From positions 2,537 through 66,536 of the forward strand of contig JBFEOQ010000003.1 in assembly GCA_041550515.1 (NCBI GenBank): a DNA stretch of 64,000 nucleotides, in the 5' to 3' direction. Positions 43,482 through 54,715 of the stretch are shown in pieces. The first letter of the stretch is position 1. Each line of letters starts with the position of its first letter. Position numbers and translations under genes: made by a program. Origin of the DNA: Thermoplasmatota archaeon. GTDB taxonomy: Archaea > Thermoplasmatota > E2 > DHVEG-1. The notes beneath the pieces were generated by a model that was given only the letters and a program-made list of their open reading frames with translations, was not told the origin of the DNA and did not search any database.

Positions 43482-43619
43482 ATGGAAAATTATACAAAAT
43501 TTGAAGTTTATGGGGAAGAAATGCTCGAGAAGATTGTTAAAAAATGCGGTAACAGTGGTCGTATTTATCTTCCTCCAGATTGGATTGAAAAAAAAGTCAA
43601 AATAATAAGAATTGATTGA
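43482..43619 (+). CDS. Unannotated 45-aa ORF, DUF2080/AbrB-SpoVT-like small protein
   Basis: The translation is MENYTKFEVYGEEMLEKIVKKCGNSGRIYLPPDWIEKKVKIIRID. The GNSGRIYLP..W..KKVK pattern resembles swapped-hairpin AbrB-like/DUF2080 proteins. It ends 14 nt before the GNAT gene at the head of the operon. Confidence 0.4.
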   Translation: MENYTKFEVYGEEMLEKIVKKCGNSGRIYLPPDWIEKKVKIIRID

Positions 43620-43633
43620 GGAGATAAGTTATT

Positions 43634-44080
43634 ATGAACAAAATAAAAGTAAGACCTATGGAAGTAGAAGATATTACCCAGGCAGCTGACATTCATCGTA
43701 GGGTTGTTAGAAAAGGTCTTGGTCCAAGTACAAACTATCCAATTGAAAACCTGTTTAAATCTTTTATTAAAAAGAGCCCTAAAACTTGTATTGTAGCTGA
43801 AAAGGATAACAGAATTGCTGGTTTTGTTATTGGTAGTATAAAAGAATGGGTATTTGGTGTTGAACGTTCCGGTTGGATAGAGTTGGTTGAGGTTGATCCC
43901 AAACTTATGGGAATGGGTATTGGTAAAAATCTTGGAGATTCTTTAATCGAACATTTTCGAGATGAAGATATAAAAGAGGTTTATACTTCAGTAAAATGGG
44001 ATAGTGGAGATTTAATTGCTTTTTTCAAATCAATAGGACTTTATAAGAGTAGTTTTATAAACCTTGAAAGGGGGTTGTAA
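43634..44080 (+). CDS. GNAT family acetyltransferase
   Basis: 148 aa. Acetyl-CoA motif MGMGIGKNLGDSL. It overlaps the following reductase gene by 17 nt. Confidence 0.8.
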   Translation: MNKIKVRPMEVEDITQAADIHRRVVRKGLGPSTNYPIENLFKSFIKKSPKTCIVAEKDNRIAGFVIGSIKEWVFGVERSGWIELVEVDPKLMGMGIGKNLGDSLIEHFRDEDIKEVYTSVKWDSGDLIAFFKSIGLYKSSFINLERGL

Positions 44081-45212
44081 CATAGAATTAGTTCAAGAAT
44101 TTAAAAAATGGGAAAAAAATAGACACAATTATGCAAAAGAATGGAAAAATAAGACAGGTGGAAAAGTCATTGGGTACTTTTGTACCTATGTACCTGAAGA
44201 AATATTGTATGCTGCAGGTATACTGCCTGTACGGATTTTAGGTAGTCATGAACCGCAGGATGTAACTGAGCCTCATATTTTTGGTATGTTTTGTCCTTTC
44301 TGCAGGGATTGTCTTGCCCAAGGACTCAAGAATAGATATAATTATCTTGATGGTCTTATGATTGCGCAATCGTGTCTACATATCAGGCAAGCGTATACTA
44401 GTTGGATTAAACATAGACCAGTAGAATTTGAAAAATTTCTTTGTATGCCACATAAGGTTCAAAGCCCACATGCCTATGAGTTCCTAACTGAGGAATACAA
44501 GGTTTTTAAGAAAGAAGTGGAAAATTGGACTGGTAAAAAAATAACAGATAAGGACTTGGAAAATGCAATAGAAATTTATAATGAGAACCGTCGTCTAATG
44601 AGACAGCTATATGATCTACGGAAACGTGACAAACCGCCTGTTACTGGTGAGGAAGTTATGGAAATTGTTATTGCTATGCAAATGATGGATAAAGCAGAAC
44701 ATAACAAAATATTAAAAGAAACCTTAGCGAGGCTAGAGAACTATACTCCAGATAGGGAAACTGGTAGCCGATTAATGATCCTTGGGTCTGAGGATGATGA
44801 TACTGTTTTTATGAATATGGTTGAGAATTGTGGTGCCACATTTGTAATAGATGATCATTGCACTGGAACTCGTTATTTTTGGAATGAAGTAGAAAACGGT
44901 AAAGATCCTCTTGCATCTATTGCTGCTAGATATATAAATAGAATTCCTTGCCCTTCAAAAGATTGGGAGGAACGAAAGAGAATTCCACATATTTTAACCC
45001 TATGTAAAGAATGGAACGTTGATGGTGTCATCATAATGCAACAGAAATTCTGCGATCCACATGAACTCGACTTTGTCGCAATAAAAAAAGCATTGGAAGA
45101 TGTTGGTATACCTACATTATTTCTAGAATTTGATGTAACAGTACCAATTGGACAGTTTAAAATCCGAGTGGAAGCTTTTCTTGAAATGATTGGTGAGGAG
45201 GATCTATTTTAG
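44064..45212 (+). CDS. bzdN: Benzoyl-CoA reductase gamma-type subunit (BcrC/BadD/BzdN family)
   Basis: 382 aa. [23 protein letters not shown] and the rest of the HgdB/BcrC-family fold. It is the first of four reductase genes in gamma-beta-delta-alpha order. TTG start, so the start is uncertain. Confidence 0.8.
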
Positions 45213-52429: not shown

Positions 52430-52430
52430 A

Positions 52431-54260
52431 ATGTTTAACAAAAAACTGGCTATTGTTGATTTATCAAAAAACAAGGTTAGTTTTGAACAAACTCCTAATA
52501 CCTTGAAAAAACTGTTTTTAGGAGGTCGTGGTCTTAATAGTTATTATCTTTATAATATGATAAAACCAGGTATTGATGCTTTTTCTCCAGAGAATGTTTT
52601 AATTTTTGGAACTGGTTTTTTAACAGGTACTCTTATTCCTAATTCTAGTCGTTTTAATGTTTCTGCTAAATCACCAGAGTCGGAGATTCTTGGTGATTCG
52701 AATTGTGGTGGATATTTTGCAGCTGAACTACGATATGCGGGTTTTGATAGGATAATTATCAAAGGTAAATCAAAGAAACCATGCATTCTGTATGTTACAG
52801 ATAACAATATTGAGATTAAAGATGCAAAAGATTATTGGGGAATGGATACAACTGAAGTACAACAATCTCTTAGAAAAGACCTTGGGCAAGTAGAAGTAGC
52901 TTGTTGCGGTGTTGCTGGTGAAAACCTTGTTCGTTTTGCATGTGTTAGAACAGGGGTGAAGAATGCTGCAGGACGATGTGGCTTTGGAGCAGTTATGGGT
53001 TCAAAGAATCTAAAAGCAATTGCTGTTAGAGGGACACAAGGAATTAGAATAGCACATCCTGAGGAGATGCTTGAAACTGTTGAAGAACTAAAAGAGTATA
53101 TTATGAATTCTAAAATAACTTCTATTCTTGGAACTGTTGGAACCCCTCTTCTCTATGAGGTTAGTAATGTTCTTGGAGCTATTCGAACCAAAAATAGTCA
53201 ACTCAATGCTTGGTCAGATACTTTGAACGCTGAAGTTATTGAAACTTTTGTAGATAAGATGATTGGGTGTTCATCATGTATTGTTCATTGTCGTCATAGA
53301 AACAAACTTGGTGGTGAAGGACCTGAATATACTGCTGTAGGATTATTAGGAGCAAACCTTGGAATAGAAGATACAGCCAGTGTTATTGAATTGAATAATG
53401 TTTGTAATGAGCTTGGTTTGGATATATCTTCATCTGGGACGATTCTATCCTGGGTTTTCGAACTTTATGAAAAAGGAATAATTGATAAGAAATTAACAGG
53501 TGAAGAACTTCATTTTGGAGATTTTAAACTATCTAAAAATTTACTTTATAAAATATCTCGACGTGAAGGATTTGGAGACATTCTTGCTGAAAGTACACAG
53601 AATGTTAAACGTTTTGGTGAGAAATCAAAAGACTATCTGATTGCTGTAAAAGGACTACCTCAAAGTGATCCACATGATTGCAGATATATCAAAGCATTTG
53701 CTCTTGGAATTGCTACATCTTCAAGAGGAGCTGATCATCTTCGTAGCCGGCCAACCCTTGAAATATTTCTCAAATTACCTGAGGAAGTAAAAGAAAGAAT
53801 TTATGGTAAGGGTGTTCCAAAAGATCCAACATCATATATTGGAAAAGAAAAAACTGTTTATTTTTCAGACAACATTTTTGCAGCTATTGACAGCCTTGGT
53901 ATTTGTAAATTCATTTGTCATGGTTTTAACAGCCCACATTTTATAGATTATATATGGATGAAAAAACTAATACATTCTGCATCAGGCTGGAAATTCAACG
54001 AAAAAGATATTCAGGAAATTGGAAAAAGAATAATTGATATTGAAAGAATGTTCAACAATCGCGAGGGGATTTCAAGAAAAGATGATACTCTTCCAAAAAG
54101 ATACTTTGATGATCCAATGCCTTTAAACATTGCAAAAGGGCATCATATAAATAGAAAAGAATTTGATAAACTTCTATCTAAATATTATAATATACGGAAC
54201 TGGACTGATGATGGACAAGTAAAAAAAGAACGAGTCAAAGAATTGGAGGCAATAAAATGA
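52431..54260 (+). CDS. aor: Tungsten-type aldehyde:ferredoxin oxidoreductase family protein
   Basis: 609 aa. The AOR N-terminal domain (LGGRGLNSYYLY), cluster Cys CSSCIVHC plus GICKF, and pterin-binding blocks. Confidence 0.9.
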   Translation: MFNKKLAIVDLSKNKVSFEQTPNTLKKLFLGGRGLNSYYLYNMIKPGIDAFSPENVLIFGTGFLTGTLIPNSSRFNVSAKSPESEILGDSNCGGYFAAELRYAGFDRIIIKGKSKKPCILYVTDNNIEIKDAKDYWGMDTTEVQQSLRKDLGQVEVACCGVAGENLVRFACVRTGVKNAAGRCGFGAVMGSKNLKAIAVRGTQGIRIAHPEEMLETVEELKEYIMNSKITSILGTVGTPLLYEVSNVLGAIRTKNSQLNAWSDTLNAEVIETFVDKMIGCSSCIVHCRHRNKLGGEGPEYTAVGLLGANLGIEDTASVIELNNVCNELGLDISSSGTILSWVFELYEKGIIDKKLTGEELHFGDFKLSKNLLYKISRREGFGDILAESTQNVKRFGEKSKDYLIAVKGLPQSDPHDCRYIKAFALGIATSSRGADHLRSRPTLEIFLKLPEEVKERIYGKGVPKDPTSYIGKEKTVYFSDNIFAAIDSLGICKFICHGFNSPHFIDYIWMKKLIHSASGWKFNEKDIQEIGKRIIDIERMFNNREGISRKDDTLPKRYFDDPMPLNIAKGHHINRKEFDKLLSKYYNIRNWTDDGQVKKERVKELEAIK

Positions 54261-54715
54261 AACATCTATATGTTCATCCAGAAAAATGTACAGGTTGCAG
54301 AGAATGCTCAATTGCTTGTTCACTCAATAAGTTTGGAGAATGCAATCCAAAAAAAGCAGCTATTACTGTTGTTAGAGATGAATTCAATCGATATGAGTTC
54401 CCTATAGTATGTTTTCAATGTGATGATCCAATTTGCCTGAAGTTTTGTCATCAAAATGCTTATGAAATCAAAGATGGAATTATTATAAGGGATAAAAATC
54501 GATGCATTGGCTGTAGACTTTGTGCTGTTCTTTGTCCATATAATGCTGTGACATCAATTGATGATGAAATAATCAAATGTGATCTGTGTGATGGTGATCC
54601 AAAATGTGTAAAGTATTGTTCAACAAACGCTATTGAGTATCTGGATGAAACAGAAGAACTTGAAAAAAGACGTAAAAAAATGGCAGAGCGCTTTCTTGAA
54701 ATTAATAAAGATTAA
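54257..54715 (+). CDS. Four-cluster [4Fe-4S] electron-transfer protein (AorA/BamC/CooF-like)
   Basis: 152 aa with four Cys motifs: CTGCRECSIAC, CFQCDDPICLKFC, CIGCRLCAVLCP and CDLCDGDPKCVKYC. Its ATG overlaps the aor stop (ATGA). Confidence 0.85.
   Translation: MKHLYVHPEKCTGCRECSIACSLNKFGECNPKKAAITVVRDEFNRYEFPIVCFQCDDPICLKFCHQNAYEIKDGIIIRDKNRCIGCRLCAVLCPYNAVTSIDDEIIKCDLCDGDPKCVKYCSTNAIEYLDETEELEKRRKKMAERFLEINKD

Follow-up and report, generated by a model that had tools for sequence, protein, structure and literature searches.

Genes for a predicted Bzd-type class I benzoyl-CoA reductase system in a Thermoplasmata archaeon

The DNA analyzed here, called the window throughout, is a stretch of 64,000 nucleotides (nt) of contig JBFEOQ010000003.1 from a Thermoplasmatota archaeon, and all coordinates are positions in this window. 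Twelve consecutive open reading frames (ORFs) occupy its + strand between positions 43482 and 54715. Four of them, located consecutively at 44064–48230 in the order N-O-P-Q, were assigned to the subunits of a Bzd-type class I benzoyl-CoA reductase. The predicted products (lengths in amino acids, aa) and a putative promoter element are the following.

43426–43433, + strand: TATA-box-like sequence TTTAAATA
43482–43619, + strand: 45-aa DUF2080-like small protein (NF033496, 67.6 bits for a cut-off of 22)
43634–44080, + strand: 148-aa GNAT acyltransferase with an intact (K)xxGxG acyl-CoA loop (Pfam Acetyltransf_1, E = 7.7e-12); overlaps bzdN by 17 nt
44064–45212, + strand: BzdN, gamma subunit, predicted carrier of the [8Fe-9S] double cubane
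45227–46567, + strand: BzdO, beta subunit, predicted to hold the [4Fe-4S]-OH2 cluster and the benzoyl-CoA pocket
46580–47359, + strand: BzdP-like ATPase, delta subunit, 259 aa
47361–48230, + strand: BzdQ ATPase, alpha subunit, 289 aa
48245–48532, + strand: 95-aa 2x[4Fe-4S]-type, BzdM-like ferredoxin (Pfam Fer4; eight cysteines, Cys23/26/29/33/68/71/82/86)
48550–51060, + strand: 836-aa BzdV-like fusion, presumed NAD(P)H:ferredoxin oxidoreductase (Pfam and NCBIfam architecture)
51047–51685, + strand: 212-aa metallo-beta-lactamase-fold hydrolase, glyoxalase-II-like (PF00753, E = 5.4e-34; TIGR03413, 104 bits, below the cut-off of 200.8)
51689–52429, + strand: Sir2/CobB NAD-dependent protein deacylase (NF001753, 286.8 bits, above the cut-off of 243; NF040867, 298.9 bits, below the cut-off of 320)
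52431–54260, + strand: tungsten-type aldehyde:ferredoxin oxidoreductase (AOR) of the AOR clade (AFOR_N and AFOR_C)
54257–54715, + strand: 152-aa polyferredoxin, putative electron-transfer subunit of AOR (matches to 4Fe-4S families such as PadI and DmsB, all below cut-offs)

The junctions between these ORFs given by the original prediction (+14, -17, +14, +12, +1, +14, +17, -14, +3, +1, and -4 nt) were reproduced exactly from the ORF list. The +17 junction presumes initiation at the ATG codon at 48550 rather than at the GTG codon at 48529. AGGAG lies ahead of this ATG, and a protein of 836 aa was also obtained when genes were called independently on the identical Logan contig (7.8 kb, the single match of an exact-sequence search with BzdO). 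GGAG- or GGAGG-like motifs were found 5 to 12 nt ahead of eight genes (those for the GNAT, BzdO, BzdP, BzdQ, the ferredoxin, the 836-aa protein, AOR, and the last gene), in agreement with the GGAGG-type sites described earlier; bzdN starts with a TTG codon and has no GGAG-like site. Inspection of the 95-nt divergent intergenic region preceding the first gene revealed the TATA-box-like TTTAAATA 56 nt before the first ATG, and this element may be the archaeal promoter of the operon. At the 3' end, a convergent gene overlaps the last stop codon by 4 nt. Scans of the window for tRNA and Rfam families detected no RNA genes.

Pfam assigned the products of 44064–45212 and 45227–46567 to the HGD-D family and those of 46580–47359 and 47361–48230 to the BcrAD_BadFG family. 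The four proteins have the sizes (382, 446, 259, and 289 aa) and both ATPases have the KCAAG and C(T/V)V(F/Y)A blocks that the original prediction had attributed to them. To discriminate within the two superfamilies, we used the NCBIfam equivalog models. Scores exceeded the cut-offs for BzdN (TIGR03190, 489.2 versus 453.8 bits), BzdO (TIGR03191, 607 versus 448.6 bits), and BzdQ (TIGR03192, 434.5 versus 380.2 bits), and all scores for the Thauera-type models TIGR02263, TIGR02261, and TIGR02259 were far below theirs. Among all sequences of the PDB, the best matches of BzdN and BzdO were the two chains of the enzyme of Aromatoleum sp. CIB, 8S02_B (54% identity, 472.6 bits) and 8S02_A (60% identity, 576.5 bits), respectively. 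The next matches were far weaker (103 and 187 bits for HadB and HadC; 42 and 146 bits for MbdO and MbdN). MbdONPQ (PDB 9G87 and 9GAI) and BcrCBAD of Thauera are likewise four-subunit ATP-dependent aryl-CoA reductases drawn from the same superfamilies, but these scores place them at a distance from the enzyme of the window.

The functional residues reported for the Aromatoleum enzyme (Fuchs et al., 2025; PMC11971306) were mapped onto the window proteins through pairwise alignments. All six ligands of the [8Fe-9S] cluster were conserved in BzdN, Cys40/77/104/266/296/330 corresponding to Cys36/73/100/263/293/327 of Aromatoleum, and the shell of the double cubane (Arg53, Arg267, Arg290, and His330 in Aromatoleum numbering) was identical. 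In BzdO, Cys94/142/393 corresponded to the three ligands of the aqua-[4Fe-4S] cluster (Cys95/128/380), Glu64 and His145 to the catalytic acid/base pair (Glu65 and His131), Tyr96/Tyr314/Gln290 to the thioester ligands (Tyr97/Tyr298/Gln274), and Trp45/Leu318/Leu396 to the ring pocket (Trp46/Leu302/Leu383). The ATPases were aligned with HadI (4EHT), HgdC (1HUX), and MbdQ/MbdP (9GAI). The two cysteines found in each subunit, in EKCAAG and AQCTVFAE of BzdP and in DKCAAG and STCVVYAK of BzdQ, matched the cluster cysteines of these proteins. By reference to HgdC, we take these aligned cysteines to be [4Fe-4S] ligands. The original prediction had favored the Bzd (Azoarcus) type over the Thauera type, and this choice is borne out by the N, O, and Q equivalogs, the conserved cofactor ligands, the two different ATPases, and the N-O-P-Q order. 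Together, the equivalog scores, the cofactor ligands, and the two-cysteine ATPases settle, as far as sequence allows, the assignment of the core to a Bzd-type four-subunit class I benzoyl-CoA reductase.

To compare the surroundings of the core, related loci (given L numbers below) were collected by a BzdO scan covering one genome per GTDB species, which returned 390 relatives; the 80 closest loci were taken into trees. The ferredoxin gene lies directly 3' of bzdQ in nearly all related loci, and it is followed by the gene for the 836-aa protein in most of them, in archaea and in bacteria, with 40–77% identity between the large proteins. The 836-aa protein combines an N-terminus containing [2Fe-2S] and NuoG/HoxU-like [4Fe-4S] motifs with a GltD/NfnB-like FAD/NAD(P)H module and a DUF7508 domain, and belongs to a large family whose members are about 835 aa long. 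BzdV has been described as a putative NADPH:ferredoxin oxidoreductase (PMC5658619). The ferredoxin and the 836-aa protein correspond to the BzdM and BzdV proteins of the literature. Among the homologues of the 836-aa protein, none was named BzdV by its source; the names encountered were "FAD-dependent oxidoreductase", "GltD-like", and "formate dehydrogenase beta".

Genes that may act downstream of the reductase, together with the gene convergent with the operon, are located as follows.

37783–38550, - strand: crotonase, candidate dienoyl-CoA hydratase Dch (TIGR03189, 166.2 bits, below the cut-off of 292.5)
38560–39732, - strand: zinc-dependent alcohol dehydrogenase, candidate Had (TIGR03201, 116.2 bits, below the cut-off of 338.65 and no better than generic alcohol dehydrogenase families)
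39871–41013, + strand: BamA/Oah (TIGR03200, 574.3 bits, above the cut-off of 464.45)
41010–43386, - strand: DUF35/OB-fold protein, SCP-x-type thiolase, and SDR (a BbsA/BbsB-like beta-oxidation trio), divergent from the operon
54712–55950, - strand: PadH-like FAD/NAD(P) oxidoreductase of the disulfide family, convergent with the operon (NF045765, 274 bits, below the cut-off of 475; PF07992, E = 1e-61)

The original prediction had counted dch, had, and bamA as a triad making the system complete. This stands for bamA, which passed its equivalog cut-off, and is not established for the other two, which did not; roles as Dch and Had are nevertheless plausible for the crotonase and the alcohol dehydrogenase. 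The adjacency of dch/had and bamA is conserved in Thermoplasmata, the candidate had adjoining bamA in L002, L004, L005, L008, and L014, and orthologues of the crotonase (52–56% identity) are encoded next to bzdN in many Asgard loci. The trio of thiolase, SDR, and DUF35 genes is syntenic across the Thermoplasmata loci.

These genes suggest the following pathway. The 836-aa flavo-iron-sulfur protein would take electrons from NAD(P)H and transfer them to the 95-aa ferredoxin, which would in turn reduce the [4Fe-4S] cluster bridging the BzdP/BzdQ heterodimer. Hydrolysis of ATP would lower the potential of this cluster and push the electrons into the [8Fe-9S] double cubane of BzdN and from there to the water-ligated [4Fe-4S] cluster of BzdO, where benzoyl-CoA would be reduced to cyclohexa-1,5-diene-1-carbonyl-CoA by hydrogen-atom transfer. 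Ring opening would involve the candidate Dch, the candidate Had, and the bona fide BamA, all encoded 3 to 6 kb upstream, and the neighboring beta-oxidation genes would complete the breakdown. The substrate probably derives from aromatic acids or aldehydes and from the aromatic amino acids of detrital protein, since AOR, acyl-CoA ligases, and a PaaK-like gene are co-located. In this scheme, we infer the activity, the electron donor, and the source of the substrate.

We regard it as highly probable that the operon specifies a Bzd-type class I benzoyl-CoA reductase system of a Thermoplasmata archaeon of marine benthic group D (MBG-D)/Thermoprofundales. Several observations weigh against this conclusion. 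BzdP has a match to the general activase domain (PF01869, E = 2.5e-49; TIGR00241, 207.6 bits), a dedicated model and a solved structure both being absent for this subunit. BzdO differs from the characterized enzyme by a 15-aa insertion and by Ser44→Gly, the sole change among the named active-site residues. The dch and had candidates fell short of their equivalog cut-offs, with scores no higher than those for generic crotonase and alcohol dehydrogenase families. No benzoate-CoA ligase equivalog was found in the window; the ligases present instead are a generic 522-aa AMP-forming enzyme and a PaaK-like fragment. The enzyme activity of the archaeal clade is deduced from its sequences, and electron transfer from NAD(P)H to ferredoxin is uphill. 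Finally, an ATP-consuming class I enzyme is energetically awkward for a strict anaerobe presumed to live by fermentation or acetogenesis, as previously discussed (Dong et al., 2019; Farag et al., 2019).

The insertion and the substitution in BzdO also raise the possibility that the protein is a genuine class I reductase whose physiological substrate is another aryl-CoA, such as methyl-, halo-, or hydroxybenzoyl-CoA or an aromatic thioester derived from an amino acid. The insertion (consensus YKDGEFVPRFxGAKP, 15–16 aa) spans residues ~114–128 in the window (45566–45610), about 10 residues ahead of the Gln/Cys/His cluster-binding loop. It marks the Thermoplasmata clade containing the window, whereas L066, L075, and L081, which form another and smaller group of Thermoplasmata, lack it; Asgard BzdO proteins have a different, shorter insertion, and most bacterial proteins, like that of Aromatoleum, have none. 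The substitution is located beside the catalytic water. Class I enzymes such as methylbenzoyl-CoA reductase accept substrate analogues (PDB entry 9G87 is named 3-methylbenzoyl-CoA reductase), and the presence of generic and PaaK-like ligases in a window devoid of a benzoate-CoA ligase equivalog could be viewed in the same light. However, BzdO of the window does not differ from the benzoyl-CoA complex of Aromatoleum BzdO in its ring pocket or in the three thioester ligands, and the match to MbdO is very weak (42 bits). Furthermore, the glycine at position 44 is invariant across the whole archaeal and bacterial clade sampled, which argues against a special adaptation in this archaeon. A substrate other than benzoyl-CoA is therefore improbable.

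Still less probable is the identification of the four core genes as a 2-hydroxyacyl-CoA dehydratase of the HgdAB, HadBC, or FldBC type with its activators, or as a double-cubane cluster protein (DCCP) acting as a reductase. The HGD-D and BcrAD_BadFG families are common to all of these systems, and the window does contain a separate HadB-like gene and an activase gene (58488–60670). In contrast to the Bzd models, those for HadB (133 bits for a cut-off of 750), HadC (208 for 700), and DCCP (218 for 350) were not passed by the core proteins. The association of a six-cysteine double cubane in BzdN with a three-cysteine aqua cluster and a Glu/His pair in BzdO is the combination of BzdNO. There are two different ATPase genes rather than one gene for a homodimeric activator, and bamA is located nearby. 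The equivalog scores and the cofactor ligands thus effectively refute the dehydratase and DCCP identities.

The host of the benzoyl-CoA reductase operon was identified from the contig and from its relatives. The archaeal DnaG primase is encoded on the same contig (NF003108, 534 bits, above the cut-off of 300), and the window additionally encodes a ThiN-domain protein, MetRS, and other housekeeping proteins. The best matches to BzdO were all from Thermoplasmata, the closest being those of the closed chromosome of Thermoplasmatales bin105 (CP070836.1, L002; 95% identity), SM1-50 (88%), and Candidatus Proteinoplasmatales SG8-5 (87%), and the closest relatives are the MBG-D/Thermoprofundales neighborhood. 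In a quick neighbor-joining tree of the 80 closest loci, built without dehydratase outgroups as was that of the GNATs, the BzdO of the window fell in a clade containing only Thermoplasmata, apart from an Asgard clade and a mixed bacterial clade. From the FadB gene through the PadH-like gene, locus L002 matches the window gene for gene in order and orientation. Gene order over at least 20 kb is common to three closed Thermoplasmatales chromosomes (L002, L006, and L015) and about 15 other Thermoplasmata metagenome-assembled genomes (MAGs), and synteny spans about 20 Thermoplasmata species in all, closed chromosomes included. The DnaG primase, the presence of the island in closed archaeal chromosomes, and the BzdO clade confirm that the contig is archaeal, as originally proposed. 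A bacterial island mis-assembled or mis-binned into an archaeal contig, which could be argued from a GC content (0.35–0.40) slightly above that of much of the window, from close BzdO relatives in many bacterial phyla, and from at least one obvious mis-bin among public MAGs, is the least credible reading and was rejected because the 64-kb contig, in which no break was detected, also encodes archaeal DnaG, because the order of genes over at least 20 kb is that of closed archaeal chromosomes, and because BzdO belongs to a Thermoplasmata-only clade with its own insertion.

Two public entries came to attention in this comparison. The BzdO of contig L032, labeled "Halanaerobiales", is almost identical to that of the Heimdallarchaeota locus L031, and this contig is probably the result of mis-binning. 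Two divergent bzd clusters, with BzdO proteins showing 89% and 74% identity (L007 and L019), are present in CP070751.1 ("Thermoplasmata archaeon bin33 chromosome", 5.16 Mb), which suggests that the assembly is merged or chimeric or that the clusters are real paralogues.

To our knowledge, biochemical work on archaeal class I benzoyl-CoA reductases is limited to Ferroglobus placidus, so the original prediction was correct in confining such experiments to a hyperthermophilic member of the Archaeoglobales. By description, the F. placidus enzyme is likewise archaeal, ATP-dependent, and of the Azoarcus/Bzd type, whereas the host of the window belongs to a low-GC sediment lineage, Thermoplasmata rather than Archaeoglobi. 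A search for BzdO homologues (E ≤ 1e-20) returned 1719 proteins, and NCBI names many of them "benzoyl-CoA reductase, bzd-type, subunit O" in MAGs of Thermoplasmata and of Odin-, Prometheo-, Hod-, Heimdall-, and Hermodarchaeota; its bzd-type annotation of these genes extends to Lokiarchaeota MAGs. Class I bcr genes with oah, dch, and had have been reported in MAGs of Thermoplasmata and Bathyarchaeota, together with a discussion of the energetic paradox (Dong et al., 2019). Asgard genes have been assigned to the Bzd class (Farag et al., 2019), clusters that include BzdV, ferredoxin, Dch, and Had have been described in Hermodarchaeota (Zhang et al., 2021), and bcrABCD has been found in Candidatus Yaplasmales (Zheng et al., 2022). 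In addition, Liu et al. (2020), as cited, are credited with evidence from genomes and transcripts for the degradation of aromatics by Thermoprofundales via phenylacetate-CoA ligase and benzoyl-CoA reductase. A class I island in an AT-rich, mesophilic archaeal lineage had been put forward as notable in itself; this novelty does not hold, since the NCBI annotations and the publications of 2019 to 2022 precede it, including for Thermoprofundales/MBG-D. The bzd clusters of these lineages, of other Thermoplasmata, and of Bathyarchaeota and Asgard MAGs belong to the same family, with proteins up to 95% identical, and synteny with the Thermoplasmatales MAG chromosomes is identical, with differences only at the strain or species level. 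The operon is a well-supported instance of an already reported system and is neither a new enzyme class nor an indication of a new host lineage.

Comparison with BzdNOPQ of Aromatoleum (Azoarcus) sp. CIB (BzdNO, PDB 8S02, 8S1T, and 8S2R; PMC11971306) delineates what is common and what is not. Both clusters have N-O-P-Q followed by a ferredoxin gene and a BzdV-like oxidoreductase gene, and the catalytic subunits share the ligands of both clusters, the catalytic Glu and His, and the benzoyl-CoA pocket. In contrast, the window has an archaeal host and a BzdO with the insertion and the substitution at position 44. Its operon is headed by the DUF2080-like and GNAT genes, no BzdR-type regulator being seen at this position, and ends with the metallo-beta-lactamase, Sir2, and AOR genes in place of bzdW/X/Y/Z/A. 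The dch, had, and bamA genes are separate and divergent.

The tail of the operon varies among relatives. The metallo-beta-lactamase-fold protein, possibly a thioester hydrolase, is encoded in most close Thermoplasmata loci and not in Asgard loci. Sir2 occurs at this position only in L002–L004 and L016, and AOR is absent from the covered stretches of L003, L004, and L015. The 12 genes described as one operon were all found in the same order in the closed chromosome L002, indicating that the arrangement did not arise by chance. As a fixed unit the description fails: the accessory genes come and go among close relatives, so the operon built around the reductase is a mosaic of modules.

The closest solved relative of AOR is the Pyrococcus furiosus enzyme 1AOR (397.5 bits). 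The possibility that AOR is a hidden class II subunit BamB was rejected, the score against BamB (4Z3W) being 209 bits compared to 397 against AOR, and to 1099.6 for a true BamB (L089). The polyferredoxin is always paired with AOR in related loci, and the PadH-like gene is syntenic with this pair in L002, L005, L007, L008, L010, and L011; its product is possibly a third AOR subunit. The AMP-forming ligases encoded at 56897–58465 and 20552–22498 both retain the C-terminal PX4GK lysine motif. This lysine is the usual target of acetylation by Pat-type enzymes and of deacetylation by CobB/Sir2. The motifs offer a possible role for the Sir2 protein of the operon. The GNAT and Sir2 proteins would probably serve in acylation-based regulation.

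The two genes that precede bzdN deserve separate consideration. The 45-aa DUF2080-like protein had 658 homologues, with about 80% identity in Syntrophorhabdaceae and Desulfosarcina. Its 41-aa core is near-invariant between archaea and bacteria, 24 to 27 positions being invariant in two alignments. Save for a few exceptions, the small gene lies directly before a GNAT gene in every examined locus with enough downstream sequence. In the BzdO-centered genome scan, the GNAT gene immediately preceded bzdN in every Thermoplasmata locus for which this region was covered, in Asgard loci of the Hod/Heimdall type, and in several bacteria; this result, which covers the cassette or at least the GNAT, is independent of the scan described next. 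In Syntrophorhabdaceae and in Desulfosarcina cetonica, the small gene is immediately followed by a gene for a GNAT of 146–155 aa, with no reductase nearby.

Class I and class II benzoyl-CoA reductases are unrelated enzymes that catalyze the same reaction. In one contig (L089:8001-15892), the cassette was found 347 nt before a BamB gene (1099.6 bits against 4Z3W), which is followed by homologues of BamC, BamD, and BamE. A metagenome scan with the small protein was then evaluated for the best 80 of 586 relatives, a ranking biased toward the L089-like query, and neighbors were counted at loci with at least 1.5 kb of downstream sequence. In about 21 loci, the small gene and the GNAT gene preceded bamB(CDE), the small gene being straight before bamB with no GNAT in two of them. 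Class I bzd genes followed the GNAT in four loci: bzdNOPQ in L116 and L150, N-O-P in L162, where the stretch ends, and an ATPase gene only in the short contig L136. The bzd genes of L116, the only one of the four loci to be scored in this way, passed the Bzd equivalog models. About 12 loci had other neighbors, among them FeoB and, as low-potential energy-metabolism operons, Rnf, V-type ATPase, and FdhD accompanied by a molybdoenzyme. The cassette, with a small protein of 45–64 aa and a GNAT of ~146 aa, was recorded at 43482–44080 of the window and in L089, L093, L109, L111, L116, L118, L125, L126, L148–L150, L152, L155, L158–L160, L162, and L167. GNATs of class I and class II contexts were interleaved in the neighbor-joining tree and had a distinctive set of motifs in common.

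A small acetyltransferase gene within a benzoyl-CoA reductase cluster has a precedent in bamK (Gmet_2077) of Geobacter metallireducens, encoding an N-acetyltransferase of the bam cluster and induced 21.8-fold on benzoate. The likeness to the GNAT of the window is by description, and the locus tag of bamK places it beyond the bamH end of bamB-H (Gmet_2087-2080), not before bamB. DUF2080 has also been validated as an antitoxin domain associated with nuclease toxins. Neither PADLOC nor NCBIfam revealed a defense or toxin signature for the small protein and the GNAT, and there was no match of the TacT/AtaT type. A type II toxin-antitoxin module with the GNAT as toxin is not supported, on these grounds and in view of the 24–27 residues invariant across two domains of life. 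An origin of the cassette in a toxin-antitoxin-like element may still be considered by analogy with the antitoxin function of DUF2080. The AlphaFold2 model of the 45-aa protein had a predicted local distance difference test score (pLDDT) of 69 and two strands, and a Foldseek search with it against the PDB gave no match; an AbrB/SpoVT-like fold is a conjecture. We tentatively propose, with limited confidence, that the DUF2080-like and GNAT genes form a conserved leader cassette of both classes of benzoyl-CoA reductase operons and act as an unrecognized regulator or sensor. The GNAT may sense acyl-CoA, with the small protein as its DNA- or protein-binding partner. Alternatively, the cassette may control or protect low-potential aryl-CoA reduction by means of acylation and be related to Geobacter bamK. 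It may be considered as a regulator, as a device for acylation, or as an addiction element that maintains catabolic islands in the manner of a toxin-antitoxin pair. The link of the cassette to both classes of reductase appears not to have been previously described as such.

Other parts of the window contain genes of related interest. A PaaK-like phenylacetate-CoA ligase gene (62982–63926, - strand) covers only profile positions ~110–426, the ORF being short at its N-terminal end, and agrees with the phenylacetate route published for Thermoprofundales. A second radical-enzyme system at 55957–60670 comprises a PanE-like gene for a 2-oxoacid reductase (55957–56904, - strand), a gene for a generic AMP-forming acyl-CoA ligase (56897–58465, - strand), a single HadB-like HGD-D gene (58488–59759, - strand; 228 bits to HadB, below the cut-off), and an activase gene (59885–60670, + strand); no second dehydratase subunit was seen in this system. 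HadB-like, activase, and PanE genes likewise flank the bzd clusters of Heimdall and Hod loci (L035 and L050). Purely as conjecture, this system and the BbsAB-like genes at 41010–43386 might form a feeder from phenylalanine through aryl-lactyl-CoA and cinnamoyl-CoA to benzoyl-CoA.

Further upstream, genes for monomeric isocitrate dehydrogenase, both subunits of ATP-citrate lyase, and aconitase lie in a row (12692–20098, - strand). This cluster fits a reductive or reversible tricarboxylic acid cycle, which is unusual with respect to descriptions of Thermoplasmata, and is adjoined by an AMP-forming acetyl-CoA synthetase gene (20552–22498). A complete bacterial-type UvrB-UvrC-UvrA nucleotide-excision set is also present on this archaeal contig (3203–9494, - strand).

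MBG-D archaea are among the most abundant protein-degrading archaea of marine sediments, and dearomatization by class I enzymes costs two ATP per ring. The operon indicates that an MBG-D archaeon has the genes for ATP-driven dearomatization of benzoyl-CoA, a self-contained electron-donor module, and a ring-opening hydrolase nearby. It supports the published view that sediment archaea share in the anaerobic turnover of aromatic carbon. The window also provides a clean and complete template for biochemistry, the catalytic subunits being 54–60% identical to a crystallized enzyme. The one part of the operon from which a new question could arise, and the only lead worth following, is the DUF2080-like/GNAT cassette common to class I and class II operons.

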